Assembly: GCA_038279365.1 (NCBI GenBank)
Contig: JAYODI010000012.1
Span: 3,859 to 67,858, forward strand
Length of the DNA: 64,000 bases
Direction of reading: 5' to 3'
DNA from: Candidatus Latescibacterota bacterium
Lineage (GTDB): Bacteria; Latescibacterota; UBA2968
Both the position numbers and the translations under genes were made by a program. Shown one piece after another: positions 32,383 to 48,908 of the stretch (position 1 is the first letter of the stretch; each line of letters starts with the position of its first letter). The notes below the pieces were generated by a model, which was not told the DNA's origin, searched no databases, and worked only from the letters and a program-made list of their open reading frames with translations.

Positions 32383-33414
32383 TCACTTTATGGCGCGTTC
32401 TACCGCATTGCGCATAGCAAGCATTTGGCCAATGGCAAAAGCCCACCCCATACGTGTATCAACCGTATCGCCATCAACAATAGGGGTATGGTCGGGATCA
32501 ATTAAGCCATCGTACCCCACCTCATGAAAAGCCTGCATACACGCAAACATATCACAGTCACCTTCATCGTGAAACACTTCTACATACTTAAAACGAGGTG
32601 TTTCCACACGCACATTTCGAAAATGCACCGTACCTATTCGCTTCCGCGAGCCAAAATACCGAATCATCTCCACCGCATCGGCACCCTTTTCGGTCATCAC
32701 GCCTGTATCAAAAAACACGCAGTTTGACGGACTATCTACCACCTCAATCAATCGCTTCATACCGGCCACATCGCCCATGGCCTGTGCCACACCGCGATAA
32801 ACCGGCACCGGTGGATCATTGGGATGAACAGCCAACTTGACACCTGCTTTTTCAGCGGTCGGAATGACGGCTTCTAAAAAATAAGCCACCCGATCCCACA
32901 TCTCTTCATGTGAATGACACCCCACCGACTCTAAGGGTGGCAAATCTTTGATGCGATCATAGTCAAAATCGCGCAAATCGGCTCCACCACGCCCACCACC
33001 CATTCGTGGGCCATACCCTTCAGAAGCACGCAACGCCGTAAAATTGTATGTCAACACACCCAACCCAACACGCCCCGCTATTTCGATATTGGCCTTAACC
33101 GTTTCCAAATCGTCATCGCGCCCATCTTGCCCCATCAAAATATTGCCCGACACCCCCAACGCAGCCACCGTGGGTTTTAAACCAAACGATTCGATACGCG
33201 CCCGAATACGCAACAACAATTCTTCATCCCACATATGACCTTGCCCACCCACTGGGCCAGTTTGTGTTGGCGGAACAAAAGGACGCGTGGTGCCCCCAGT
33301 GCCGGGTTCTTCATTCCACCGTGTGGGCATGCTGACCTCTTCCACACCCAACTGCTTAAAAAAGCGCAATGTTGTTTCAGCCACATCGCCTAATCCTTTT
33401 CCAATCTTAATCAT
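32383..33414 (-). CDS. uxuA: Mannonate dehydratase family protein
   Basis: LTYNF, LAVHPNDPP, VHFRNV, EGDCDM, PDHTP. Confidence 0.8.
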   Translation of the reverse strand: MIKIGKGLGDVAETTLRFFKQLGVEEVSMPTRWNEEPGTGGTTRPFVPPTQTGPVGGQGHMWDEELLLRIRARIESFGLKPTVAALGVSGNILMGQDGRDDDLETVKANIEIAGRVGLGVLTYNFTALRASEGYGPRMGGGRGGADLRDFDYDRIKDLPPLESVGCHSHEEMWDRVAYFLEAVIPTAEKAGVKLAVHPNDPPVPVYRGVAQAMGDVAGMKRLIEVVDSPSNCVFFDTGVMTEKGADAVEMIRYFGSRKRIGTVHFRNVRVETPRFKYVEVFHDEGDCDMFACMQAFHEVGYDGLIDPDHTPIVDGDTVDTRMGWAFAIGQMLAMRNAVERAIK

Positions 33415-35483: not shown

Positions 35484-37292
35484 TTACCGTTCCACAATAT
35501 CCACAATCGCCACAGCCACCTCCCCCATCAACTGACCATTTCCCCCAACTTCTCCCCCAATGAGAAAACGGCCCCCTTTTATCTTTTTGGGAATCACCAC
35601 ATCAAAACTTATTCGACGTTTTTTATGCCCCAAAACAGTGAGCGACCGTTGTCTCTGTTTTGAGGTCCACCCCTCAGGCAATGTTGGCGAAACGGTCACA
35701 GACATCTTTTGATCACGTGCATTCTCCACATAAAAACGCAAAGTAATGGTTTGTCCAGCACGTGCTTCGGTTCGAAATGGTTCCCACCCCATCATTCGCG
35801 GATCATAATCTTGCACCCAATCTCCAGATGGACACAAATCACGTACTGCTTTTTCGGCTTGTGTGGCCCATTTCAAAATGCGCCGATATAGATCAGCATC
35901 ATAGCGATACACACAACCATGACCATTACATATCAAATCGGGTTTTAAGTCCAATACCACCTGTGCCGACCTGCCAAACCCATCTATGAACCGACTGCCA
36001 TTAAACGCACAAAATCCACCCGTACCATTCCAACGTGTAGGCGGCTGAAAATTATCACCCGAAAACAAAACATGCTGGCCAAATATGTCGGTATCAAATG
36101 CACAATGCCACAACGTTTGCCCCGGAAAAGGGCGAATTTGAAAATCATATTCTCCCCACTTAAATGCCCCTTCTTCGGGCAACAAACGATCAGGGACAAT
36201 AGAATCAGCCGGCAACCACGGCACATCCATCACATTGCGATCCACCATCGGTTTGGCCACCCACGGGTGCAACCACACCTTGGCACCATATTGTTTACGC
36301 ACCCAATTCAGCCCATCGCTGTGATCCCGGTGATAATGTGTGGCCGTGGCCACCGTTACCCGATCCACACCCGCAATCGCCATCACCTCGCCAATGCGTT
36401 CAATACTTGGCAATGTGGGGTCAATGATCAAACCCTCACCATTTTGTCCTGCCAGCAAATATGTATTGCTTCCCCATATAAACAAATTGGGCAACACGCG
36501 AGAAATGCCATTGCCCAAAACCTCGACACCAAACCAATGATCTATCGCACCCGCACAGACAGAACCCTTGGCTTTCACAAAAGCCAAAATGCGTTTTTGG
36601 GTTTGCCGAACACACGCACGGGCACCTTTTGCAACAACCGCACCATGCGACGGACACAACAGATCGATTCGACACCCACCCAAACGCTCCAAACCATACC
36701 AAGCAGACAGTGCACCTTCACCCGTCCAATGATCCCATTCCAAATGATAAGGCTGATGTAACTTGCCATTTTCCAAAACAGCATCACCACAAAAGACAAT
36801 GGATTTCCCTTGCCAATTCACCACATAACTCACAGCCCCACGCGTATGCCCCGGTGTGGGAACAACACCCACCGTCACCCCTTCCCAAACCAATTCGGAG
36901 GCATCACCCACATCCCCTTTCACAAAAGGCAATGGCACGCTTGGAGCCGAATAATTGGGTGGACAACCACCTGCTTGATAGGTTCGCCAAAAAGCCAGTA
37001 AACGATCGGCCTGAAAAAAACGCCCATCTTCGCCCGAACAATGCACCTCAAATGGCCATTCCGATTGTGTGGACAAACCATAACATTGATCGCGATGTGC
37101 ATGCGTCAACAACACATGCCGAAGGTTTTTTACACCAATTTCAGCAAGGTGGGCCAACCACTTTCCCGAACCAAAATCAATGGCAATGGCATCCTCTCCA
37201 CATTTGAGAAGATAAACATTGCACGCATCTTGAACATGGTAAACACTGGGCAGGATTTCTTTAAACATCGTTTTGGGCATACACCTATCCAT
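35484..37292 (-). CDS. Tandem metallo-beta-lactamase-fold hydrolase
   Basis: Two MBL motifs (THAHRDQ, THYHRDHSDG), PGHT, GD, HG; C-terminal Ig-like domain. Confidence 0.85.
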   Translation of the reverse strand: MDRCMPKTMFKEILPSVYHVQDACNVYLLKCGEDAIAIDFGSGKWLAHLAEIGVKNLRHVLLTHAHRDQCYGLSTQSEWPFEVHCSGEDGRFFQADRLLAFWRTYQAGGCPPNYSAPSVPLPFVKGDVGDASELVWEGVTVGVVPTPGHTRGAVSYVVNWQGKSIVFCGDAVLENGKLHQPYHLEWDHWTGEGALSAWYGLERLGGCRIDLLCPSHGAVVAKGARACVRQTQKRILAFVKAKGSVCAGAIDHWFGVEVLGNGISRVLPNLFIWGSNTYLLAGQNGEGLIIDPTLPSIERIGEVMAIAGVDRVTVATATHYHRDHSDGLNWVRKQYGAKVWLHPWVAKPMVDRNVMDVPWLPADSIVPDRLLPEEGAFKWGEYDFQIRPFPGQTLWHCAFDTDIFGQHVLFSGDNFQPPTRWNGTGGFCAFNGSRFIDGFGRSAQVVLDLKPDLICNGHGCVYRYDADLYRRILKWATQAEKAVRDLCPSGDWVQDYDPRMMGWEPFRTEARAGQTITLRFYVENARDQKMSVTVSPTLPEGWTSKQRQRSLTVLGHKKRRISFDVVIPKKIKGGRFLIGGEVGGNGQLMGEVAVAIVDIVER

Positions 37293-37349
37293 TTTTTTAC
37301 GAATGATACGACAAGCTTGGAGATTTAGTTTCAGCTTTCACTGTCCTGT

Positions 37350-37377
37350 ATTCAGCGTTCAGCATTCAGCGTTCAGC
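37350..37377. repeat. Heptamer array (RTTCAGC)x4
   Basis: attcagc gttcagc attcagc gttcagc, plus a stray unit at 37329. Confidence 0.85.
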
Positions 37378-37420
37378 AATCCGTTCTCGGCACCCAATCC
37401 GGAAAGATGTGTCCACCTTT

Positions 37421-38350
37421 TTAAGGATTCAGTTCACAGGCCAATTCCATAGACGGAAACACATCGGCAATGGTGGGCCACATCGCACGTTTTTCAATGA
37501 GTGCCGTCACAAACTCATGGGTTTCGGCATAAGGACCAATGCGAATAAAATGAGGCTCATCGGCATCGGGTTGTTTGTCAATCACCAACTCATTGTTTTT
37601 CCAACATTGCAAACGGGGTTCGCGAGAATTTTCTACAGCCATATTGACCCGATATCCTTCGCCATAAATTTCATACCTTTCTTCGGCGCATCCATCTGTC
37701 GTGAGCACATCAAAACTACCCAACGCGCCCGACTCAAAATGCAATACAAAATGATGCCACGGCGTACCATCATTTTGTGAAAAAGATTCTGTGCGAACCA
37801 CATCACCTGCAATAAATCGCAACGCATCAATGCTGTGAATGCCCGTGCCAGACACAAAAAAATCTTCGCGGCGATTGTGACGCAACATGGATGCCCGCAC
37901 AAACCGAATGGGCCCTTGAGCCAATGCCCACGCACGCCCTTCACAAATAAGCGGTTGAAACCGTCGATTCACCGAAATCATATGAGGTGTTCCTGTTGCC
38001 TTGGCAATTGCAAGCAACTCGCGTCCTTCTTCAACAGATGCGCCCGGCGGTTTTTCGATGGTCACAGGCATACCCATTTCCATCAATTCTTTGGCCAACG
38101 GCACAATCAATGGAATGGGCATCACGCACACACACCCATCGGGCTTTTCCTTTTCAATCATCTCACGATGATCTGTATAAGCCGACAGAAAACCATATTC
38201 TTTCGCAAATTGATCGGCCTTATCTTGCACCAAATCGCAAACAGCCACCAACGAAACCCGATCTGCGTGATCTTTTGCATATTGCGCCAATGCGGGTGCA
38301 TGATTGATGCGACAGTGATTACCTGCGCCGATGAGTGCAACCTTTACCAT
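37421..38350 (-). CDS. Gfo/Idh/MocA oxidoreductase
   Basis: IGAG, EKPP, NRRF, GIHSID. Confidence 0.9.
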   Translation of the reverse strand: MVKVALIGAGNHCRINHAPALAQYAKDHADRVSLVAVCDLVQDKADQFAKEYGFLSAYTDHREMIEKEKPDGCVCVMPIPLIVPLAKELMEMGMPVTIEKPPGASVEEGRELLAIAKATGTPHMISVNRRFQPLICEGRAWALAQGPIRFVRASMLRHNRREDFFVSGTGIHSIDALRFIAGDVVRTESFSQNDGTPWHHFVLHFESGALGSFDVLTTDGCAEERYEIYGEGYRVNMAVENSREPRLQCWKNNELVIDKQPDADEPHFIRIGPYAETHEFVTALIEKRAMWPTIADVFPSMELACELNP

Positions 38351-38366
38351 AAACGATCCTCTCCGT

Positions 38367-39131
38367 TTAAAATCGTGATTTGGCTTTTAATAAACGCAAG
38401 GCATTGCCACCTAAAATCGCCTCAGCCACATCGTCAGCAACGTCTGTCACCACACGGCCCAAAGCGGCATGAGGAATAAACAATGGGGCGTGAGAACCAA
38501 ACGCCAACCGTGCCCCCAACCCCTTATCGACCAAAACCTTAACCGCATCCAAACCGTCTACCTGTGAAGTATCGGCATACACATTGGGCAATGCCACTAT
38601 ACGCTCTGCCAAAGTGCGCAACTCGGCCGCCTTTGCCCCACCAATCACCACACACAACTCAGGCAATTGTTCGGCCATATCCACCACCACAGAAGCGGCC
38701 AAACTTGGCACAACTGCCAAAGGATGATGACGACGCGGATCTTCCAAACAAATCTGCACCATCACAGATAAATGCGCATCGTGTATCGCCTGCAAAAAGT
38801 CCTTCTCGCTGGCCAAATCATACCCGCCGTAATTAGGCAACAACCGAACCATTTGTACACCATCATGTTCACACGCACATTTTAATTCCTGCTGCCAATT
38901 TGCCACCGTCGGATCTAATACTGGCACTGGGGATACATCGTCAAATGCATCACTTGCCTCAAACAAAACACGATTATATACATGAGGGTTACGACACCAC
39001 ACAGAACCCAAATGTGACGCAAAAATACGCGTTACACCAACTTCCCGCAACGAAGGCCACACATCTTCAGGATCGCCCATCACAGGATGAGAGGGCCACG
39101 TGCCAATAAAATTGTTCAAGTCAATAATCAT
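38367..39131 (-). CDS. Amidohydrolase_2-family protein with degenerate metal site
   Basis: IIDLN, YADTS, FGSHAP, ILGGNA. Confidence 0.75.
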   Translation of the reverse strand: MIIDLNNFIGTWPSHPVMGDPEDVWPSLREVGVTRIFASHLGSVWCRNPHVYNRVLFEASDAFDDVSPVPVLDPTVANWQQELKCACEHDGVQMVRLLPNYGGYDLASEKDFLQAIHDAHLSVMVQICLEDPRRHHPLAVVPSLAASVVVDMAEQLPELCVVIGGAKAAELRTLAERIVALPNVYADTSQVDGLDAVKVLVDKGLGARLAFGSHAPLFIPHAALGRVVTDVADDVAEAILGGNALRLLKAKSRF

Positions 39132-39145
39132 ATTCAAATTCCAAA

Positions 39146-39979
39146 TTAAATTTGTGTGATACCTGTCCAAGCGGGCAACAACTTGGCCGTATTGTTCCAA
39201 AGAATTTTTCGCTTCACCACATCTGATAAATTTGTTCCCAATGTTTTGCCCAACTGCACAGCAAAATGACGGATAGGTGCATCTGAGCCAAACACCACCC
39301 GATCTTCACCCAACATATTTACAGCCGCTTCAACCATGCCACTTTCTGGGTCGCCACCCGATGTATCAACCACCAAGTTCTCGCAATCGGCAACCGCCGC
39401 CAAGCCACGCAACCCACACCCATTGAGATGTGCCATAATAATGCGGGCCTTGGGATGGCGTTTTGCCAAGTCAGCAACATCCCAAGGAAAAGACTCGCCC
39501 TCCAAATTACCCGTTGTTTTTTCCCACGCATGTTGTAACACGGGCACATCCAATGCCACAGCGCGTTCCATTATTGGGTCTAATCCCAAATCGGTTGCAC
39601 GCCGTGCCACCCAAAGTTTGATGCCACACATTCGTCCCACACCCACCGTCCGATTCATTTCGATCACAGACTCTGCTGGATACATCGGATTGACATAACA
39701 AAATGGATAAAAAACATCGGGCGCAATTTTTTGCATTTGTAATGCATAATCATTTGCCTCACGACATTGGTCCATCGTGGGTTCACGTGGCACAGTTGTA
39801 TGAAGCGAAAACAGCACCATCTTTTCCACACCCGATCGCCTGGCAGATGCGATAAGCCTTTGGGCATCTTCTTCGGCCGAAGTCACAGCATACATACCAA
39901 AATTATCTAACGGGTGCACATGCACGTCGAATGCCGGAAACGGCGTTTTTAGTTGTGCACGCAACTCAGTAAGTCCCAT
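39146..39979 (-). CDS. Amidohydrolase_2-family protein
   Basis: DVHVH, GIKL, LQHA, MAH, DTSG, FGSDAP. Confidence 0.88.
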   Translation of the reverse strand: MGLTELRAQLKTPFPAFDVHVHPLDNFGMYAVTSAEEDAQRLIASARRSGVEKMVLFSLHTTVPREPTMDQCREANDYALQMQKIAPDVFYPFCYVNPMYPAESVIEMNRTVGVGRMCGIKLWVARRATDLGLDPIMERAVALDVPVLQHAWEKTTGNLEGESFPWDVADLAKRHPKARIIMAHLNGCGLRGLAAVADCENLVVDTSGGDPESGMVEAAVNMLGEDRVVFGSDAPIRHFAVQLGKTLGTNLSDVVKRKILWNNTAKLLPAWTGITQI

Positions 39980-40115
39980 ATACCCAACCTTGTATGGAGT
40001 TAAAAACAGAGTACACATCATAAGTGTATCAAATGAAATCTTTGAATAAGCCCACCGAAAAGCAAGCCCTAAAACAAACGCCCCAACACGTCGCAGAGGC
40101 GTTTCTTATTTTTGC

Positions 40116-40144
40116 TTGATCTAACCCCATCTCTCTCTTATACT
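40116..40144 (+). promoter_or_regulatory. Sigma70-type promoter of the kinase operon
   Basis: TTGATC-17 nt-TATACT. Confidence 0.6.
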
Positions 40145-40192
40145 GTGAAACCGATTTTTACATTTCCAACGCCAATCGCAACACAATGACTT

Positions 40193-41383
40193 ATGCCAAC
40201 ACTTGTCGATCAACTCATATCTGAAATGCACAAACGATTTGGCATTGCACCTGCCCATGTCAAAATTGTGCGTTCACCCTATCGCATCTGCCCATTGGGT
40301 GCACACATAGATCACCAGTTGGGTGCCGTGACAGCCATGGCAATTGATCAGGCCGTTTATTTGGCATTCGCCCCCACAAACAACACCAAAATACAACTGC
40401 AAAGCCTCACATTTGATGGCCAAGTTCGCTTTGACATTCTTGATGTGCCCCAAAAGCAAAGCAATGACTGGGGTAATTATGCACGTGGGGCCGTTTATGC
40501 ACTCCAAAACCAAGGACACACACTCACCAAAGGCTTGGTGGGGCTCACGAGTGGCAGAATGGACGAAGGTGGTCTCAGTTCATCAGCGGCCATTGGTGTG
40601 GCCTATTTGCTTGCGCTTGAATACGTCAACCAAATTGAGATCACGGCAGAAGAAAACATTCGCCTCGACCAAGCCATCGAAAATGGGTATCTCGGCCTTA
40701 AAAATGGGATTCTCGATCAATCGGCCATTTTGCTTTCACGCAAAGACCATCTCACGCTGATTGATTGTGCATCTGTCGATTACGAATGCATACCCAAATC
40801 TCAAGAGATGCCCCCCTTTGATATCTTAATTGCACAATCGGGGCTCAAAGAAGCACTCGTCAGCACCGGATATAACACCCGCGTAGATGAATGTGCACAG
40901 GCCGCTCATTTGTTATTAAACGCGGTTGGGCGTTCTCACCAAGCACCATTGTTGGGCAATATTACAGCAGCAGAATACCACACCCATCAACATGTTCTCT
41001 CAGGCGATATTGCCAAACGTGCGCGCCATTTCTTTGGTGAATCAACACGTGTCAAGCAAGGCATAGAAGCATGGCGCACAGGAGACCTCAACACATTTGG
41101 CAAACTGGTTGCCGAATCGGGTTACAGCTCTATTCACAACTACGAATGTGGCAGCACAGCACTCATAGATCTCTACCACATCCTCATGGAAACCGAGGGC
41201 GTTTATGGTGCACGATTTAGCGGTGCAGGGTTTCGAGGGTGTTGTGTGGCGCTTGTAGACCCATCAAAATCAACCGCAGCACGCGAACAGGTTCACAGAC
41301 AATACCACGAAAAACAGCCTCGCCTTGCCAAAAATGCCTCTTCCTTCACCTGTCACCCCGCCGATGGAGCACACATCCTGTGA
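40193..41383 (+). CDS. GHMP sugar-1-kinase of the plant galacturonokinase type
   Basis: PYRICPLGAHIDHQ, GLSSSAA, ENGYLGLKNGILDQSAILL, GYNTRVDEC, GARFSGAGFRGC. Confidence 0.85.
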   Translation: MPTLVDQLISEMHKRFGIAPAHVKIVRSPYRICPLGAHIDHQLGAVTAMAIDQAVYLAFAPTNNTKIQLQSLTFDGQVRFDILDVPQKQSNDWGNYARGAVYALQNQGHTLTKGLVGLTSGRMDEGGLSSSAAIGVAYLLALEYVNQIEITAEENIRLDQAIENGYLGLKNGILDQSAILLSRKDHLTLIDCASVDYECIPKSQEMPPFDILIAQSGLKEALVSTGYNTRVDECAQAAHLLLNAVGRSHQAPLLGNITAAEYHTHQHVLSGDIAKRARHFFGESTRVKQGIEAWRTGDLNTFGKLVAESGYSSIHNYECGSTALIDLYHILMETEGVYGARFSGAGFRGCCVALVDPSKSTAAREQVHRQYHEKQPRLAKNASSFTCHPADGAHIL

Positions 41384-42150
41384 AAGCCATTATACTTGCA
41401 GCCGGTTATGCCACACGCCTTTACCCCCTCACCAAAGACTTTCCCAAACCCCTACTTGAAGTGGGTGGGCAAACCATTTTAGATCACCTGATTGACCAAC
41501 TTAAAACCATTCCAGAACTCGACCATGCCTACTTGGTCACCAATGCACGGTTTCATAATCATTTTACAAATTGGGCGCAAAACCGTGCCGCCAAAGCCCA
41601 AGAATCGGAACAAGCACATGTGGGGCTGCGCACAGACATTCTTGACGATGGCACATCTTCTAATGAGGATCGACTCGGTGCCGTGGGCGATCTTCAATTT
41701 GTCATAAATGCACGCGACATTCACGATGATGTGCTCGTTTTGGCAGCCGACAACATTCTCCAATTTTCACTGCAAAAACTTATCAACACCTTTAAAAACA
41801 ACCCAGCACCACACATTACCGTAAGATCCAATCCCGATGTGGAAGATCGCAAACGCAGGGGCAACGCACGCCTTGACACCACCAACAAAGTCATTGAGTT
41901 TATCGAAAAACCCAAAACACCCATTTCAGAATGGTCTGTTCCTCCCTTCTATATTTATCCCACAGCCGTATTACCACGCATCACCGAATACCTCGACAAT
42001 GGGGGCAACCCCGATGCACCGGGGCATCTGATTGAATGGCTCCATAAAGAAGAAGCGGTCTATGCTTACGAAATTGAAGGCGAAATTATAGATATTGGCA
42101 ATCACGAATCTCTTGCTGAAGCACGACGTATCTTTGGTGAAAAAACCTGA
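41380..42150 (+). CDS. Sugar-1-phosphate nucleotidyltransferase
   Basis: AIILAAGYATRLYPLT, PKPLL, FIEKP, DIG. GTG start overlaps the kinase stop (GTGA). Confidence 0.9.
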   Translation: MKAIILAAGYATRLYPLTKDFPKPLLEVGGQTILDHLIDQLKTIPELDHAYLVTNARFHNHFTNWAQNRAAKAQESEQAHVGLRTDILDDGTSSNEDRLGAVGDLQFVINARDIHDDVLVLAADNILQFSLQKLINTFKNNPAPHITVRSNPDVEDRKRRGNARLDTTNKVIEFIEKPKTPISEWSVPPFYIYPTAVLPRITEYLDNGGNPDAPGHLIEWLHKEEAVYAYEIEGEIIDIGNHESLAEARRIFGEKT

Positions 42151-42199
42151 AACGCTTATCGTTATATTTCACAATCTTAAAGTTAGAGAGGCAACATCC

Positions 42200-43399
42200 A
42201 TGGCAAGTGTTAACATCATTCGTCACAAACCCATTCCCATCTTTTGCAGCACCGCCGAAGTCGTCATCACATACGATGACAATCAGATTGTTCGACTCAT
42301 AGAACCCAGCGGCAATGTGGGCACACAATATTCACAAGAACTGGGTTCGCAGTGGTTTGGTACCATTCAAAACCTCAATCCTGGCCTTGAACGAGGTGGT
42401 GCAAATTGGGGCGATGTTTATAAAACCGATGTGCTCTGGACAACCCCATCACCCGACCGCGATGTTTGTGAAGCCTATCGCAACGACTACAATGCCGTTT
42501 ATGGCCCCATGATCCAAGCGGTCACGGGTTGTACGCTCAAATCCAATCGCATGGCGCGCTTCACACATTCAGAAGGCTTTCCCGATCCGAAAGCGCGTTT
42601 TGAAGTTCAAATCAAAGCCATCAAAGGCGAAGGCATCTCCTTTGGAAATGGCAAAATTGAATTGGGTGCTTGGACAGATTTCCAACCCAGTGGCGCTTCC
42701 GTACAACACACCGACGACAAAGGCAACTTGGTCACCACCTTAGGTGACGATGTCAAAAAAGAAATGGAATTTGTACTGGTTGAACAATATGAAAAAAAAC
42801 TCGCCAAAGAGGGTGTTGACTTCAAAACCCAAACGGCTTGGTTAGAAGTACTCGTTGCCATTGATGACGATCCATCGACCACCTGGCAACGCATTGAGGC
42901 TGTGCGTGAAGTCATTGCCGAATACTTTGGCGACAACCGCCCTGCTGGCAAAATTTACCCCGTCTCACGCATCCCCAACCTCGATGGCATTGTTGAGCCC
43001 CAACCGCGCTGCGTCACGGGCGATGTCAAAATTGATCGTTCGGGAGAAATTATCGATGGGTTTAGCACCTGGACAGCCATTCGGCGCAAAGGTGTTTCAG
43101 AAGTACTCGTAAGTGGTGTGGGGGGTGACAATGCCAACACCATTCTCAACACCATTGACAAACACATCAAAGCAGCCGGTGGACAAGGTTTAAAAGAAAA
43201 TGGCGTTTTTAACAATGCCTACATCGTTGCCGGTGCCAACACGGAAGAAAGCCGTGCACGACTCGTTAAATTCAATGAACAATTTTCGGGTTATTATACA
43301 GGTGTCGCACCTTCTGGGCGCACAGCACAATATTTACCAGGCTTTATGCAAGAACGTTACATCTGTGGCATATCCAACCGCGCCATTTATGCGGGTTAG
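42200..43399 (+). CDS. Protein with three tandem RidA/YjgF-like domains
   Basis: Three repeats ending MAR...FEVQIKAI, PAG...IVEPQ and PSGR...ISNRAI; GAGAGG RBS. Confidence 0.7.
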   Translation: MASVNIIRHKPIPIFCSTAEVVITYDDNQIVRLIEPSGNVGTQYSQELGSQWFGTIQNLNPGLERGGANWGDVYKTDVLWTTPSPDRDVCEAYRNDYNAVYGPMIQAVTGCTLKSNRMARFTHSEGFPDPKARFEVQIKAIKGEGISFGNGKIELGAWTDFQPSGASVQHTDDKGNLVTTLGDDVKKEMEFVLVEQYEKKLAKEGVDFKTQTAWLEVLVAIDDDPSTTWQRIEAVREVIAEYFGDNRPAGKIYPVSRIPNLDGIVEPQPRCVTGDVKIDRSGEIIDGFSTWTAIRRKGVSEVLVSGVGGDNANTILNTIDKHIKAAGGQGLKENGVFNNAYIVAGANTEESRARLVKFNEQFSGYYTGVAPSGRTAQYLPGFMQERYICGISNRAIYAG

Positions 43400-43418
43400 T
43401 CAAAAATGCAGATAAAAT

Positions 43419-43449
43419 AAATGGCGCGAGTTTATAACTCGCGCCATTT
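43419..43449 (+). terminator. Rho-independent terminator
   Basis: AAATGGCGCGAGTT / AACTCGCGCCATTT. Confidence 0.85.
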
Positions 43450-43552
43450 GTGTTTCTATGATCAAATAGATATTTTATCACTTGACATCTGCCCACATAT
43501 TCCACATTAAACGCAAGCAAATCGTCCATCGCATAAACACGGATACGAACCG

Positions 43553-44821
43553 ATGACCGCTTGGCAATTCACACCCATCGCTTACCTTTATTTTATAGCC
43601 GCTGCAAGTGCGCTCTATTTGGGCGTTTATGCCTATCGACTGCGCCCAGTGCGTGGAACAACCTACTTTTGCTTATTAAGTGTCTCTGTAAGTATTTGGA
43701 CATTGGGTTATATCTTAGGGTTGCTCAACCCCAGTTTAAGTGGCAAACTTCTTTTTTTGCGTTTGGAATATTTGGGCATCATTGCTACCAATATCTTCTG
43801 GCTTCTGTTTATTATCACGTATATCTACCATAACCATTGGCTCACAAAAACCACGCTCACACTCTTAAGCATTATTCCGATAATCACCTACATTCAAATT
43901 CTCACTGTAGAGCAACACAATTTCTTTTATCGCGTCTATGAACTCACAACCGTTGACAACCTCGTTGTGACCCGCAAAGTATATGGCACAGGATTTATCT
44001 TGTGGTCAATTTATGCCTATACCACTTTTTTTATAGGCGAAATGCTTCTTATTTGGAGCATTTTTCGCATGCCCGACCAATTTCGCAAACAAGCCATTCC
44101 CATCGTGTTCATTGTCGCAATGGCCATGGTACCCAACTTTCTCTACATCACAAACAGCAACCCCATTGCCCCTTACGATCCCACACCCTTACCGTTTGTT
44201 ATATCAAGTATCTTATTTCTACTCATGATTCGCCACTATGGGTTTTTGAATATTGTACCTGTTGCCTATAATCTCATCTTCAAAAATGTCCACAGTGGCA
44301 TCATCATTCTCGATGAACACCACCGCATCATAGACATTAATCCCATTGCAACAAACATCATAAAAAGCACACAATTGGATATTTTAGGTAAACCATTGGC
44401 CGATTTTTTTCCAGAAATAAAAGATCATATTCATCCTGAAAACAAACAAAACAACATTGAAATTGAAAAAGACGAACATACTTACGAAATACAATCTACG
44501 CCGTTATCCTATCATAAAAATAAATCCGCCGGCCAAATCCTCATGCTCTATGATGTTACCGCTCGAACATTTTTAGAACAACAACAAAGCCTGCTCATCA
44601 AGGAATTAAGAGACGCACTCGATCAAGTCAAAACGCTAACGGGTCTCTTGCCCATTTGTGCCAACTGCAAACAAATACGCGACCCAGATGGGGCCTGGCA
44701 ACAAGTAGAAACCTACATTCAAAGCCGTTCCAGTGCCCATTTTACACACAGCATTTGCCCCACCTGTGTAGAAGAATTATACCCCGATTACATCCAAAGA
44801 AGAAAGCAAAAATCCCAATGA
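43553..44821 (+). CDS. 7TM (HisKA_7TM-type) sensor with PAS and C-terminal Cys-rich module; no kinase core
   Basis: Seven TM segments, PAS (DINP.A), LPICANCKQIRD...FTHSICPTC. Confidence 0.8.
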   Translation: MTAWQFTPIAYLYFIAAASALYLGVYAYRLRPVRGTTYFCLLSVSVSIWTLGYILGLLNPSLSGKLLFLRLEYLGIIATNIFWLLFIITYIYHNHWLTKTTLTLLSIIPIITYIQILTVEQHNFFYRVYELTTVDNLVVTRKVYGTGFILWSIYAYTTFFIGEMLLIWSIFRMPDQFRKQAIPIVFIVAMAMVPNFLYITNSNPIAPYDPTPLPFVISSILFLLMIRHYGFLNIVPVAYNLIFKNVHSGIIILDEHHRIIDINPIATNIIKSTQLDILGKPLADFFPEIKDHIHPENKQNNIEIEKDEHTYEIQSTPLSYHKNKSAGQILMLYDVTARTFLEQQQSLLIKELRDALDQVKTLTGLLPICANCKQIRDPDGAWQQVETYIQSRSSAHFTHSICPTCVEELYPDYIQRRKQKSQ

Positions 44822-45510
44822 ACACACAACGCGAAATCTTTCTGCTCATCGGTCAGTCCAATATGGCAGGCCGCGGTCTCTTAGACACCACCACACCTTT
44901 AACCCACCCCAACATTTCCATGTTTCGCGACGGGCAATGGCAAATGGCAAAAGAACCGCTTCATACCGACAAAACCACAGCTGGCATCAGCTTGGGCATC
45001 AGCTTTGCGTATCACCTATTCACCCAAGCGCCCAACAAACAAATTGGCCTCCTGCCTTGCGCGGTAGGTGGCACGCCATTAAGCCGTTGGATGCCTCAAA
45101 ACGATCTCTACGAAAATGCTGTGTCCATTGCCAAAACAGCCTTATCCAATGGCAACATCCTCAAAGGAATTCTGTGGCACCAAGGTGAAGCCGATTCCAA
45201 AGACATTCCCACAGCCAACACCTACGGCACACGCCTCACCACCATGATCTCAACCTTGCGCATAGCACTCCAGGCCGATCATGTGCCTTTTATTTCGGGT
45301 GAATTGGGTCATTTTCTTCAAAATCATGAACAATGCACCTACTTTACCCAAATCAATTACACTTTGCGTACCCTCAAACTGCCACATTACACGTGTGTCA
45401 GTGCCCATGGCCTCACAGACATTGGTGACAACGTGCACTTTGATGGCCCCTCTTTGCGTGAATTTGGCCAACGATATGCCATTCAATATCTCAAAATGTC
45501 CCACCATTAA
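44818..45510 (+). CDS. SASA/CE6-type carbohydrate acetylesterase
   Basis: GQSNMAGRG, CAVGG, WHQGEAD, DNVHF. ATGA overlap with the upstream gene. Confidence 0.9.
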   Translation: MNTQREIFLLIGQSNMAGRGLLDTTTPLTHPNISMFRDGQWQMAKEPLHTDKTTAGISLGISFAYHLFTQAPNKQIGLLPCAVGGTPLSRWMPQNDLYENAVSIAKTALSNGNILKGILWHQGEADSKDIPTANTYGTRLTTMISTLRIALQADHVPFISGELGHFLQNHEQCTYFTQINYTLRTLKLPHYTCVSAHGLTDIGDNVHFDGPSLREFGQRYAIQYLKMSHH

Positions 45511-45549: not shown

Positions 45550-46821
45550 ATGTCAAACCTCCCCAAAGTGGGTTATCTTCAACTCATTCGTAACAACAAA
45601 AACTGGCGTTATCTTTGGTTGGGGCAAATCGTCAGCCTCTTAGGCGACTGGTTCAACCTCATTGCCTCAGCCTCTCTTATTGCCACCCTAACCGATTCCG
45701 GTTTTGCCATTGGTGGGCTCTTTGTCGTACGTGCATTGGCTCCGTTTCTCATCAGTCCGTTTGCGGGCGTATTCACCGATCGCTATAACCGCAAGTACAT
45801 CCTCATTACCTGCGATCTTGCCCGCATTTTTATTGTACTGGGTTTCCTCTTTATTAAAGACCCACAATTTACGTGGGTGATCTATGCTTTGACAGCATTT
45901 CAGTTGGCCATTGGCGGCATCTTCTTTACCGCCCGCCGTGCCATCACGCCCGACATTGTGGCCCCCAACGAAATTGGCCCCGCAAATGCCATCGGTTCAG
46001 CCACCTGGTCGGTAATGCTCGCCATTGGTGCCGCCATTGGCGGTCTGGTATCTGGTGCATTTGGCGTTTACACAGCCTTTGCCATCGACAGTGTCACATT
46101 TATCATTTCGGCACTCATCATCACCCGCGTGCAGTATCATGTGCCCGACGAAGTCACCCAATCGCGTAGTGTGTCCATTTGGCATTTTCACAAACAATAT
46201 TTAGAGGGTTTGCGCTACCTCAAAAAATACCCAGAAATTCTCGCCATCACACTCAACAAAGCCGCCCTACAACTCACCTTAAGTTCGGGGTATGAAATTG
46301 CTCAAGTGCAAATTGCCAAAGACATCTTTCCAATGGGTGTGGCCGGTGGCATCAGCTTGGGGTTGCTCTACGCCACTTCAGGGGTAGGCAGTGGCGTAGG
46401 CCCTATTTTGGCACGCACGTTCACGGGAGATCGCATATCGCGGCTGCGCCTCACCATCACCTCGGGTTATTTCATTGCTGCCATAGGTTTGGCCATCATT
46501 GCCACCTTACACAGTTTTCCCATCGTCATCTTCGGCGGCCTGTTACGCAGCATTGGCGGTGGTATTGCTTGGGTCTTTTCCACACAACTCCTACTCCAAC
46601 TGGTGCCCACCCACATTCGAGGGCGCGTCTTCTCTTTTGAACAAGCCTGCTTCGCCCTCACCAGTTCTATTGCCGCCGCCACAAGTGGCCTTCTCCTCGA
46701 CGCTTTCCCTCAGTTGCCACACGTTATTTTGGGCATGGGTGTTCTTACCCTTATCCCCGGAACCTTCTGGGCCATTTGGTGTTTCAAACGCCCCATGACC
46801 GACGACTTTCGTGCCGATTAA
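45550..46821 (+). CDS. MFS transporter (DHA3/MFS_3-like)
   Basis: GQIVSLLGDW, GVFTDRYNRK, RGRVFS. Confidence 0.9.
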   Translation: MSNLPKVGYLQLIRNNKNWRYLWLGQIVSLLGDWFNLIASASLIATLTDSGFAIGGLFVVRALAPFLISPFAGVFTDRYNRKYILITCDLARIFIVLGFLFIKDPQFTWVIYALTAFQLAIGGIFFTARRAITPDIVAPNEIGPANAIGSATWSVMLAIGAAIGGLVSGAFGVYTAFAIDSVTFIISALIITRVQYHVPDEVTQSRSVSIWHFHKQYLEGLRYLKKYPEILAITLNKAALQLTLSSGYEIAQVQIAKDIFPMGVAGGISLGLLYATSGVGSGVGPILARTFTGDRISRLRLTITSGYFIAAIGLAIIATLHSFPIVIFGGLLRSIGGGIAWVFSTQLLLQLVPTHIRGRVFSFEQACFALTSSIAAATSGLLLDAFPQLPHVILGMGVLTLIPGTFWAIWCFKRPMTDDFRAD

Positions 46822-46882: not shown

Positions 46883-47650
46883 CTATCCCTTAATCATCGC
46901 CATCACATCATCAAACAACGCGCCATTGGTGGCAACAGCTTCATCTCCCCAAATGGTCGCTTTCCCATTCCAATCGGTAAACGTGCCACCAGCTTCTTCC
47001 ATAATCGGTGCCAATGCCGCACAATCCCACACATTCATCTTCGGGTCAAGCTGTACTTCGGCACGGCCTGTGGCGACCAGTGCATATCCATAACAATCGC
47101 CCCACCCACGCACCAACTTGGCTGCGCCACACAGCCGCTCAATGGCGGCATCTTTGCCATATTTATTCATATAACTGGTCATAATCACTGTTGCATCCTT
47201 CATATCCGACACGCCCGACACCCGTGCCCGTCGCCCATTCCACCACGCACCCAACCCTTTGGCGCCACTAAGCATTTCATTCAACGCAGGAAAGTTTACC
47301 ACTCCCACCGTTGGCACACCTTCAAATTCCACCCCCACCATCACCCCATAAAGCGGCACCCCGTGAACAAACGACTTTGTGCCATCTATCGGGTCCACAA
47401 TCCACCGCCGCCCCGTAGTACCCTCTTTATCGCCGTGCTCTTCACCCACAATGCCGTCATTGGGAAAACGCGTTTCTATCATGTCGCGCAACAACGTCTC
47501 CGCACCTTTATCAGCAATTGTCACCGGTGATTCATCTGCCTTTTCTTCAACCACCACACCCGTTTGAAAATGCCGCAACGTTAACCGCCCGGCCTGCCAA
47601 GCCGCTTCCATTGCAAAATCCAACACCTCACGCACAGACTCATTTGCCAT
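46883..47650 (-). CDS. hisN: Histidinol-phosphatase, inositol monophosphatase family
   Basis: SPVTIAD, GEE, DPIDGTKSF, GDCYGY, WDCAA. Confidence 0.85.
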   Translation of the reverse strand: MANESVREVLDFAMEAAWQAGRLTLRHFQTGVVVEEKADESPVTIADKGAETLLRDMIETRFPNDGIVGEEHGDKEGTTGRRWIVDPIDGTKSFVHGVPLYGVMVGVEFEGVPTVGVVNFPALNEMLSGAKGLGAWWNGRRARVSGVSDMKDATVIMTSYMNKYGKDAAIERLCGAAKLVRGWGDCYGYALVATGRAEVQLDPKMNVWDCAALAPIMEEAGGTFTDWNGKATIWGDEAVATNGALFDDVMAMIKG

Positions 47651-47858
47651 GATATTACCTCCCCAAGTTGCTAAAGATCAACGCTTGAATAAACGCACTC
47701 AATCTACGTGCCCCACCCTTTTAAGTCAAGCCACTCAAAGTACGTTGACATAAACAATTATTTATTATAATCCATCTTCATTTTCTAAGTTTGGGTTTCA
47801 CTTGCATTTTATTCCAGTCTCCAACATATTCTATCGCCACTTTAAAAAAGGAGTCCTT

Positions 47859-48908
47859 ATGGAACACCCCAATCACTCAGAGCCCATTCGCGAATATTTG
47901 TCACACCTTTACAATGACACGCATCGTTATGTTGCCTGCCGTGCTGAAAATTCTCAAGACTTTCTCAAATGGCAAGATGACGCCCGCCCAGTACTTCAAC
48001 ACATGCTCGGCCTTGAAAGCATCGGTGCCACCATGGGTGACCACGTCATTCGCGTGGAACTTGGCCCCTTGGAAGACCTTGGCGATTACACCCGCAGACA
48101 CGCCTATATCAGCACCGAGCCCCATTTTCGTCTCCCATTTTGGTATCTCCTCCCCAAAGGCGAAGGCCCCTTCCCTCTGGCCCTCTTGCCACACGGACAC
48201 GACAACCATGGCAAAGACACCTATGTGGGCATCGCACACGATGACACACACAAACAAAAAATCGAAACCGAAGACCGCGATGTGGCCATTCAAGCCGTCA
48301 AGCGTGGCTTTGCCGCCATATCACCCGGCGTGCGTGGCCAAGGAGATGTGGGCATTCCCGACATCAACAAACGCCACAGCGCCCGCGATTGTCGCAGCCA
48401 ATTTATGCACGCCATTTTAGCTGGTCGCACCGCCACCGGTGAACGCGTGTGGGACATGATGCGCCTGATCGATTGGGCACAAGACATGCCCGAAATAGAC
48501 ACCACCAACATCCTCCTCATGGGCAACTCTGGCGGTGGCGTCATCACTCTTTTTACAGCAGCTGCAGACACCCGCGTCACCATTGCTGTACCCAGTTGCT
48601 CTTATTGCACCTTCATTGGCAAAAGTGGCCTTTTACACCACTGCGACTGCAATGCGGTACCTGGTGCCTTGCGTTTTGGCGAAATATGGGACGTGGCCGC
48701 TCTTATCGCCCCACGCCACCTTTGCATCGTCAATGGCAAAGAAGATACCCTCTTTCCCCTCGAAGAAGTTGACCGTGCCGTCTCTCGTGCCAAAGCCCTC
48801 TACCAAATCGCCAACGTGCCCAACAACATCGAACACCACTACGGTTCAGCCGGTCACCGATTTTACAGCGACCTCATGTGGCCCTTCATTGAATCACGCC
48901 TCATATAA
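47859..48908 (+). CDS. Alpha/beta hydrolase (acetylxylan esterase / Abhydrolase_7-like)
   Basis: PHGH, GNSGGG, IAPR, D..FP, GH; AAGGAG RBS. Confidence 0.85.
   Translation: MEHPNHSEPIREYLSHLYNDTHRYVACRAENSQDFLKWQDDARPVLQHMLGLESIGATMGDHVIRVELGPLEDLGDYTRRHAYISTEPHFRLPFWYLLPKGEGPFPLALLPHGHDNHGKDTYVGIAHDDTHKQKIETEDRDVAIQAVKRGFAAISPGVRGQGDVGIPDINKRHSARDCRSQFMHAILAGRTATGERVWDMMRLIDWAQDMPEIDTTNILLMGNSGGGVITLFTAAADTRVTIAVPSCSYCTFIGKSGLLHHCDCNAVPGALRFGEIWDVAALIAPRHLCIVNGKEDTLFPLEEVDRAVSRAKALYQIANVPNNIEHHYGSAGHRFYSDLMWPFIESRLI

Follow-up and report, generated by a model that had tools for sequence, protein, structure and literature searches.

A bacterial relative of plant galacturonokinase coupled to a nucleotidyltransferase: a candidate uronate salvage unit with a predicted chorismatase-fold protein in Latescibacterota

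A 64,000-nucleotide stretch of the genome of a Candidatus Latescibacterota bacterium (GenBank assembly GCA_038279365.1, contig JAYODI010000012.1, positions 3,859 to 67,858 of the forward strand), hereafter called the window, carries a unit of three co-oriented genes on its plus strand at window positions 40116-43449, and our analysis confirmed that this unit is real (Table 1). The first gene encodes a GHMP-family sugar kinase of the galacturonokinase (GalAK) type, the second a sugar-1-phosphate nucleotidyltransferase (NT), and the third a protein for which three tandem YjgF/RidA-like domains and a chorismatase-like fold are predicted. Gene structure, homology, the position of the kinase in phylogenetic trees, synteny and fold are described below. 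On balance they lead us to favour the reading that the first two products would salvage free uronic acid into a nucleoside diphosphate (NDP)-uronate, with the third gene placing a chorismatase-fold protein in the same unit.

The kinase and its plant relatives

The kinase exceeds the Pfam cut-offs for three domains, GalKase_gal_bdg, GHMP_N and GHMP_C (PF10509, 42.5 bits; PF00288, 40.2 bits; PF08544, 36.4 bits). Because its best named matches are the galactokinase signature domain of Pfam and the galactokinase (GalK) models of NCBIfam, the protein could be taken for an ordinary galactokinase and the unit for a galactose salvage operon, an explanation that we consider very improbable. The kinase stays below the cut-off of all five NCBIfam galactokinase equivalogs (215 against 226.65 bits for the nearest, TIGR00131, and 238 against 385 for NF003705), and a separate, true GalK is encoded elsewhere in the same genome, on contig C20. 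This protein scores 391.8 bits with TIGR00131, compared to 214.6 bits for the window kinase in the same genome scan. The two are 30% identical (393 columns, E 2e-49), whereas the identity between the window kinase and Camellia GalAK is 46% over the full length (BLASTP, 423 columns, E 1e-121). L. lactis GalK (1pie) matches the window kinase with 147 bits. In addition, an alanine stands in the place of the glutamate of the GalK motif GEHxDY, and both trees described below part the two clades.

The original prediction had quoted three motifs as signatures of a plant-type GalAK, and all of them are present exactly as written in the translation: PYRICPLGAHIDHQ (residues 29-42), WGNYARGAVYALQ (residues 93-105) and ENGYLGLKNGILDQSAILLS (residues 163-182). 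Most of their residues are invariant in an alignment of 24 homologues. A HMMER scan of 1.84 billion representatives with the kinase gave 9462 matches, and a Camellia sinensis ‘Galacturonokinase’ (UniRef V9QNR1, P0246) ranks sixth among them (E 3e-105, 51% identity over the matched stretches). Other plant-type matches are named ‘Galacturonokinase’ (Tetracentron and Acorus) or ‘galacturonic acid kinase’ (Wolffia), and further plant or algal ones come from Spirogloea, Mesotaenium, Closterium, Psilotum and Musa, Zygnematophyceae among them. Among the best 150 of the 9462 representatives, 104 contain GAHxDH[QN] and eight the GalK-type GEHxDY, the first of these at rank 131; many of the 38 with neither motif are short and probably fragments. 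The best 120 homologues from a collection of 5.8 billion proteins, 57-91% identical, all contain GAHxDH[QN]. Their names in the records of the Joint Genome Institute (JGI) are mostly ‘galacturonokinase’ (three are ‘galactokinase’), and NCBI records of metagenome-assembled genomes (MAGs) call kinase homologues ‘galacturonokinase’, ‘galactokinase family protein’ or ‘hypothetical protein’. The kinase assignment is therefore not new as an annotation, because relatives have already been given the name automatically by JGI and in some NCBI MAG records.

We defined as signature positions those that are at least 90% conserved in 115 ingroup rows and at which at least 70% of ten GalK rows, including the GalK of the same genome, share another residue. 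There are seven of them (GalK residue in brackets): Ala-37 (Glu), His-41 (Tyr), Gln-42 (Asn), Val-231 (Arg), Ser-313 (Leu), Gly-320 (Ser) and Pro-376 (Gly). All seven residues are common to the window kinase and the Camellia protein. The glutamate at the position of Ala-37 is the one that we take to touch the sugar C6 hydroxyl in GalK, and the specificity of Arabidopsis GalAK was reportedly altered by point mutations in work by Yang and colleagues in 2009. Arg-31, His-38, Asp-40 and Asp-175, which are residues of the GalK catalytic type, are common to the ingroup and GalK. Taken together, models, identity, trees and signature residues give good in silico support to the predicted membership of the kinase in the plant GalAK lineage, apart from ordinary galactokinases.

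Trees were calculated with FastTree (125 rows) and with IQ-TREE in quick mode under LG+C20 PMSF (59 rows), and their results agree. The rows, 355-490 residues long, were taken from the 150 representatives and from 25 of 80 kinase loci, with fragments left out. The split between the GAHxDHQ clade and GalK has 100% support, so that the GHMP kinase phylogeny sets the window kinase apart from GalK as originally proposed. The window kinase groups with Latescibacterota loci inside a 39-row clade (SH-aLRT, the Shimodaira-Hasegawa-like approximate likelihood ratio test, 99) that includes streptophyte GalAK and excludes the Chloroflexota homologues. Three groups make up this clade: nine rows of the streptophyte type (SH-aLRT 86), seven rows without names, and a bacterial group (SH-aLRT 82) whose 23 rows are from Verrucomicrobiota, Planctomycetota, Sumerlaeota, Latescibacterota and Gemmatimonadota. 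For three of the ‘plant’ rows (P0256, P0269 and P0296) the source is an unnamed assembly of a metagenome or run.

A relation of such bacterial genes to the origin of the plant enzyme had also been suggested. The tree does nest plant GalAK among bacteria. When all 46 bacterial rows are forced into one clade the log likelihood is 33.7 worse, but the approximately unbiased (AU) test, for a grouping that was chosen after the tree had been seen, does not reject this alternative (p 0.085). Because the AU test leaves the alternative standing, a bacterial origin of plant GalAK appears favoured by these sequences, not established. Since the kinase family adjoins the streptophyte enzymes in the trees, it bears on the origin of the plant pectin-salvage kinase.

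In an alignment-based search, the kinase family was found in at least 549 genome-contig stretches from Latescibacterota, Planctomycetota, Verrucomicrobiota, Gemmatimonadota, Sumerlaeota and Chloroflexota. One Pirellulaceae contig holds a kinase locus at both ends in opposite orientation (L032 and L033) and may be an assembly artefact, and one locus (L051) from a MAG labelled Bifidobacteriaceae has a kinase that groups with Verrucomicrobiota and may reflect a binning error. The genome of the window (G000) encodes two further GalK-like GHMP paralogues (C34:24191-25636 and C46:21886-23028, in frames of 547 and 472 residues), which are 24-26% identical to the window kinase. In three matches (P0303, P0346 and P0352), truncated GalAK-type N-terminal parts are joined to NTP_transferase, AAA_25 or UDP-glucose dehydrogenase domains. 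We rejected the apparent fusions of kinase and NT (P0303) and of kinase and UDP-glucose dehydrogenase (P0352) as probable gene-call or assembly artefacts, since they are without GHMP_C and P0352 shares its N-terminus with the chimera P0346. The partners in P0303 and P0352, an NT and a UDP-glucose dehydrogenase, echo the kinase neighbourhoods.

The nucleotidyltransferase and the gene neighbourhood

The TGA stop of the kinase gene (41381-41383) and the GTG start of the NT gene (41380-41382) overlap as GTGA, and a GGAG lies 10 nt upstream. The NT matches PF00483 with 96.4 bits (residues 49-296 of the long frame) and has an N-terminal G-x-G-T-R-like loop, LAAGYATRLYPLT. The translationally coupled nucleotidyltransferase of the original prediction is thus borne out in both its overlap and its domain. 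None of the NCBIfam equivalogs (RmlA, GalU, GlgC, GMPP, MurU and others) is reached by the NT, the best score being 74.7 bits against a cut-off of 400, and among solved structures it comes closest to an RmlA-type enzyme (3hl3, 55 bits) and to GMPPB (50 bits). Pfam listed PF00483, PF12804 and PF01128 only, with no UDPGP-type domain; judged by its domains, the NT is not of the plant UDP-sugar pyrophosphorylase (USP) family. A plant-like pathway had been proposed for the unit. Its kinase step is homologous to that of plants, but its USP step is not matched, and because the NT is not homologous to USP only the first step would be shared with plants by descent.

We surveyed the best 80 of the at least 549 confirmed kinase stretches, with up to 6 kb on each side. 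An NT homologue lies directly 3' of the kinase in 32 of these loci, which are from Latescibacterota and Verrucomicrobiota. The third gene is also present in 25 of them (L001-L024 and L052), while the other seven, labelled Verrucomicrobiota or ‘uncultured bacterium’, have the kinase and NT only (L035, L041, L047, L057, L060, L063 and L064). In 19 of the 25 Latescibacterota-type loci and in five of the seven Verrucomicrobiota-type ones, the kinase match ends on the base with which the NT match begins. One to three tandem Uma2 genes lie between the NT and the third gene in some relatives (L005 and L017-L020), and a xylose-isomerase-like TIM-barrel gene in others (L021, L024 and L052).

Around 25 of the loci without an NT homologue, 93 of the 185 listed open reading frames (ORFs) were scanned. 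Several loci from Chloroflexota have other partners: a different NT, with PF00483 and hexapeptide domains, adjoins the kinase in L066; NAD epimerase/dehydratase and UDP-glucose dehydrogenase genes lie beside it in L072; and NAD epimerase and sulfotransferase genes do so in L068, L076 and L080. An ATP sulfurylase/APS kinase gene accompanies them in L076 and L080 and is the only such neighbour seen in L071. These contexts fit nucleotide-uronate and polysaccharide biosynthesis, and L068, L071, L072, L076 and L080 suggest clusters for sulfated uronate-containing polysaccharides.

This variety bears on a second explanation, according to which the same enzyme family acts on another substrate, namely glucuronate (GlcA), iduronate (IdoA), mannuronate or guluronate (ManA/GulA) or a modified hexose from marine polysaccharides, and the NT activates the product. 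The GAHxDHQ clade is very broad, being represented by 104 of the best 150 representatives down to about 35% identity, and kinase contexts vary, including the sulfated-polysaccharide type clusters in Chloroflexota. The genome of the window has 37 matches to the lyase domain Hepar_II_III_C and none to GH28, so that pectin is not an obvious substrate. On the other hand, the window kinase has all seven clade-signature residues as well as the long sugar-site motifs of plant GalAK, and it shares a well-supported subclade with the plant enzymes. We regard a different substrate as possible but doubtful.

The third gene begins with an ATG at 42200 that is preceded by AGAGAGG, and the same start methionine is found in all 25 aligned homologues. 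The further features of the locus are listed in Table 1.

Table 1. Features of the three-gene unit and of its surroundings (window positions).
Feature	Position	Strand	Basis or remark
Promoter-like hexamers TTGATC-17-TATACT	40116-40144	+	in 171-nt divergent intergenic region; 9/12 positions match
GalAK-type GHMP anomeric sugar kinase, 396 residues	40193-41383	+	Pfam, identity to plant GalAK, trees, signature residues
Sugar-1-phosphate nucleotidyltransferase (NT), PF00483, 256 residues	41380-42150	+	GTG start overlaps kinase stop
Third protein, 399 residues, three tandem YjgF/RidA-like domains, chorismatase-like fold (predicted)	42200-43399	+	AlphaFold2 model, structure comparison, homologues
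Bidirectional intrinsic terminator hairpin	43417-43451	both	16 pairs, 7 GC pairs, T-run on each strand
Divergent block: two Amidohydro_2 genes, GFO/IDH/MocA oxidoreductase, MBL-fold protein	35484-40021	-	Pfam
UxuA-like/xylose-isomerase-like TIM-barrel protein	32383-33414		
HisKA_7TM and PAS sensor	43553-44821		
SASA-family esterase	~44818-45510		
MFS transporter	45550-46821		
IMPase-family (HisN-type) gene	46883-47650		passes HisN model
Glucuronyl-esterase-like alpha/beta hydrolase	47802-48908		adjoins HisN-type gene

At least the two Amidohydro_2 genes of the divergent block are kept beside the unit in L001, L002, L021, L023, L024, L125 and L126, and none was found within 6 kb in L003-L020. 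The sensor, which has a Cys-rich C-terminal tail and is without a recognised kinase domain, lies between the three-gene unit and the genes for the SASA-family esterase and the MFS transporter; the synteny of the latter two is also seen in L001. A link to inositol through the IMPase-family neighbour was considered and dropped, because this gene scores above the cut-off of the HisN histidinol-phosphatase model (276.9 against 275.15). In L003 and L022, this gene and the adjoining glucuronyl-esterase-like gene come as a pair immediately after the third gene. The TIM-barrel protein encoded on the far side of the divergent block resembles the C-terminal half of the mannonate dehydratase UxuA as well as xylose isomerase, in a genome without a UxaC match.

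Fold and distribution of the third protein

The original prediction described the third product as a triple-RidA protein. In sequence searches it stays below the RidA model of Pfam (PF01042, 17.2 against 27.3 bits), and phmmer against the PDB gave only two RidA-family chains at E 0.08-0.25. An AlphaFold2 model calculated from a 26-row alignment (predicted local distance difference test, pLDDT, 83.5; predicted template modelling score, pTM, 0.88) contains three beta-alpha-beta-alpha-beta units. Foldseek relates this model to the chorismatases 5a3k, 5ag3 and 4bps (E 8.5e-9 to 6.8e-8). A VIA-align superposition with chorismatase 4bps results in a Z of 21.1 and a root-mean-square deviation (rmsd) of 3.2 Å, with 276 of 331 residues aligned, compared to a Z of 13.9 for the next unrelated entry, FBXO22. 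The ‘Toblerone’ fold of cyanuric acid hydrolase (AtzD) and barbiturase is a much weaker match than chorismatase (Z 7.3-8.2, rmsd of about 6 Å). Single RidA chains superpose on residues 143-278 and 273-399 with a Z of 7.3-7.8 and an rmsd of about 2 Å. The identity to chorismatases is 9-11%, and no Pfam or NCBIfam model of chorismatase or RidA is passed. The triple-RidA description therefore stands at the level of the fold, with its three YjgF units, and fails at the level of Pfam, and chorismatase is the closer relative (Z 21.1 against 7.8). In the model, the three YjgF/RidA-like domains are arranged as a pseudo-trimer, and chorismatase is the closest match in fold.

We found 188 homologues. 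The best 120 listed are 60-90% identical and 386-421 residues long (nearly all 391-407), and they are named ‘hypothetical protein’ or ‘enamine deaminase RidA’. In relatives, the third protein has changed less than the products of the adjoining genes; its identity in L003, for instance, is 82%, against 71% for the kinase and 66% for the NT. The present family is far more diverged than the class of tandem ‘3x-RidA’ proteins already on record (PMC4433059) and lies nearest to the chorismatase fold. The third protein represents a new, strongly conserved chorismatase-fold family that is restricted to Latescibacterota and mostly single-copy.

A survey of 168 Latescibacterota genomes, with a threshold of E <= 1e-90 for the kinase, separates the distributions of the two genes. 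The third protein is encoded in 102 genomes, almost always once (29 of 30 in family f1, four of 22 in f2, 68 of 76 in f4 and none in any other family), and the kinase in 38 (28 of 30 in f1, two of three in f3, seven of 76 in f4 and none of 22 in f2). Kinase and third gene lie on one contig, 0.8-4.4 kb apart, in the genome of the window and in all 28 kinase-bearing f1 genomes. The link between them is limited to this one family. The conservation of the neighbourhood, which had been proposed as a check, thus extends to the NT in 32 of the 80 loci and to the third gene in one family only. We also tried the abundance of lyases as a correlate of the third protein and rejected it, as Hepar_II_III_C is found in 156 of the 168 genomes; genus g10, with the third protein in none of 15 genomes, has at least 15 such matches per genome, and genus g25, with the third protein in 29 of 31, mostly one.

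Fourteen third-gene loci from genomes without a linked kinase were inspected, with 62 of 123 listed ORFs scanned. In the two f2 loci (L125 and L126), an NT of about 62% identity lies directly 5' of the third gene and the two divergent Amidohydro_2 genes are present, but no kinase; in L125 (genome G042), a Uma2 endonuclease gene (L125:8129-8767) takes the place of the kinase. The 12 f4 loci have other neighbours: a long GHMP kinase nearby in seven, whose C-terminus is like the FKP fucokinase domain (E 6e-43, below cut-off); an adjacent TIGR04282/DUF2064 CofC-like transferase in four; a nickel-pincer nucleotide (NPN) ‘group 22’ isomerase beside the third gene, mostly on the same strand, in eight; a KduD-like reductase in two; and in several (at least L121, L122, L128 and L130) a thiamine pyrophosphate enzyme like sulfopyruvate/phosphonopyruvate decarboxylase directly 3' of the third gene. 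We ruled out these neighbours as general partners of the third gene, since in the genome of the window the group-22 isomerase (C6) and the TIGR04282 protein (C37) are encoded on other contigs in unrelated contexts; the neighbours of the third gene differ between families. All that recurs near the third gene is a GHMP kinase of the anomeric type, a nucleotidyltransferase-like gene or both, and this could be coincidence. The f4 loci L120-L122, L127, L128, L130 and L133 show a recurrent cluster (position ~6000-7200) in which the triple-YjgF gene is accompanied by the long fucokinase-like GHMP kinase, an NYN_YacP gene, the TIGR04282/DUF2064 transferase, the decarboxylase-like thiamine pyrophosphate enzyme, the group-22 isomerase and in some cases the KduD-like reductase; it may encode a hydroxy/keto-acid pathway of a new kind.

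Proposed uronate salvage, its alternatives and known systems

The best and most economical reading of the first two genes, drawn from homology and gene coupling, is that D-galacturonate (GalA) would be converted via GalA-1-phosphate to NDP-GalA. A free uronic acid, most probably D-galacturonate, would enter the salvage, and the GalAK-type kinase would use ATP to place a phosphate on its anomeric C1. From this uronate-1-phosphate the coupled PF00483 NT would make an NDP-uronate, of whichever nucleotide, for glycan synthesis. The first step would mirror plant GalA salvage by common descent and the second would be carried out by a non-homologous enzyme. The third protein probably has an enzymatic role, with a carboxylate-bearing compound as its substrate; it belongs to the unit in one bacterial family and is untied to the kinase elsewhere. 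We infer the substrate, the product and the anabolic direction of the route, as well as whatever part the third protein may play.

The host is a marine-sediment-type bacterium. The stretch was found in DNA assemblies labelled as estuary, marine, marsh, salt-marsh and ‘outdoor’ metagenomes, and 14 DNA runs from nine studies hold part of it, ten of them at least half of its words. Among contigs from four RNA libraries, those of run X15 overlap each of the three genes in part, the kinase with 10 differences and hence from a related strain. In X16-X18 the third gene is partly covered, and in X16 the upstream amidohydrolase as well. Parts of the kinase and NT are without such cover in X16-X18, which is evidence neither way.

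A number of observations weigh against the salvage reading. No RNA-library contig from X15-X18 spans a gene junction, and DNA carry-over is possible. Of the predicted promoter-to-terminator unit, the terminator holds, with its 16-pair hairpin and T-run, but the putative promoter is matched no better than by chance: the intergenic region has five promoter-like sites matching at 9 of 12 positions, as compared to 4.9 +/- 2.5 in shuffles. In 48 of the 80 loci there is no NT homologue (tblastn, E 1e-5, up to 6 kb on each side), although several of these end at contig ends. In two order-mates (G042 and G061) the NT and third genes are still adjacent and the kinase is gone, and thus the NT need not depend on a kinase of the window type. 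The NT lies far below the cut-off of every NCBIfam equivalog that would give it a specificity. The third protein occurs in 102 of the 168 phylum genomes and the kinase in 38, and in the seven f4 genomes with both the two genes are on different contigs; since most genomes that encode the third protein have no such kinase, it cannot be counted on as part of a uronate pathway. The plant rows in our comparison are named by homology, the experimentally characterised Arabidopsis enzyme lying outside it, and at about 50% identity the sugar specificity may differ. Finally, our literature searches, which covered titles and the openings of abstracts and left most subscription journals outside, gave no report of activity for a bacterial GalAK; within the same scope, ‘galacturonokinase’ returned plant papers only, GalAK with horizontal gene transfer unrelated papers only, and Latescibacteria with galacturonic acid no kinase route.

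Searches for UxaC, KduI, GH28 and GH88/105, each of which matched control genomes, found nothing in the genome of the window (6.03 Mb in 199 contigs, with 98.5% completeness and 7.4% contamination). This genome contains one strong match to the UDP-glucose/GDP-mannose dehydrogenase family (C172) and a weak second one (C51). Lyase domains are nevertheless plentiful in it, with the 37 Hepar_II_III_C matches mentioned above. For published single-cell genomes of Latescibacteria the usual route from GalA and GlcA to 2-keto-3-deoxygluconate (KDG) has been described (PMC4454575), and the present genome appears to differ from them in its uronate route.

Could the unit be catabolic? In a Leloir-like entry, GalA would be converted to NDP-GalA and then epimerised or decarboxylated at the level of the nucleotide sugar for central metabolism. 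The missing UxaC and KduI matches in a nearly complete genome and the abundance of uronate-releasing lyase domains would agree with such a route. However, a pyrophosphorylase would spend one NTP on each sugar, the unit is without a uridylyltransferase-type exchange enzyme, an epimerase or a decarboxylase, and the kinase contexts in Chloroflexota look biosynthetic. We therefore consider a catabolic entry improbable. A bolder proposal extends the salvage reading to the third gene. The triple-YjgF protein would be a new enzyme family that applies RidA/chorismatase chemistry (in which a 2-amino- or 2-alkoxy-acrylate is protonated and hydrolysed to give a 2-keto acid) to 4,5-unsaturated uronates from lyases or to the nucleotide-activated uronate from the kinase and NT. 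The unit would then form a new uronate-processing pathway in bacteria without UxaC, KduI and GH88, and streptophytes would have acquired their GalAK from the same bacterial clade. As a whole, we hold this proposal to be unlikely.

If the activities proposed for the kinase and NT hold, the unit would constitute a third bacterial route for galacturonate besides the isomerase and oxidative ones, one in which the sugar acid is re-used directly as a nucleotide sugar. The plant GalA kinase has been reported to be too unstable and weakly active to make GalA-1-phosphate, and a suited kinase to be lacking (PMC7984243). Under the same proviso, the bacterial kinase could be a practical tool for obtaining this compound.

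Of the known systems, the chorismatases FkbO/Hyg5 (4bps, 5a3k and 5ag3) and the 3x-RidA proteins (PMC4433059) resemble the third protein in having three YjgF/RidA-like domains in one chain that form a pseudo-trimer. Unlike the chorismatases, the third protein has no aromatic-pathway context, is confined to Latescibacterota and retains the low identity given above. GalK of the Leloir pathway belongs to the same superfamily and has the same fold as the window kinase, which keeps the Arg/Asp catalytic pair and the sugar-site His and Asp. It differs from GalK by the exchange of Glu for Ala at residue 37, by DHQ in place of DY(N), and by five further clade-specific changes.

Salvage pairs of an anomeric kinase and a nucleotidyltransferase exist in bacteria, such as AmgK-MurU for N-acetylmuramic acid (MurNAc) and the fucokinase/GDP-fucose pyrophosphorylase FKP of Bacteroides. 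Both have the same two-step logic and tight genetic coupling as the kinase-NT pair. MurU and the window NT are both PF00483 proteins, with weak N-terminal MurU matches and 43 bits for the NT against the MurU cut-off of 250. The window kinase is of a lineage other than that of AmgK, and the kinase-NT pair is unfused, unlike FKP.

The closest likeness in lineage is that to plant GalAK (EC 2.7.1.44), which has the same GHMP architecture, 46-51% identity in its named representatives, and a place in the same tree subclade. The two share the motifs GAHIDHQ, WGNYARGA and ENxYLGLKNGILDQSAILLS. After residue 85 the window kinase is without the plant insert of about 30 residues, and unlike the plant enzyme it is bacterial and lies in an operon with a nucleotidyltransferase. 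In plants, USP acts after the anomeric kinase in uronate salvage (PMC2823444, PMC3659416 and PMC4002622). The reaction predicted for the window NT is the same, from sugar-1-phosphate and NTP to NDP-sugar, but the NT is an RmlA/GalU-like PF00483 protein, unlike USP of the UDPGP family, and would thus represent a non-homologous replacement of the second step.

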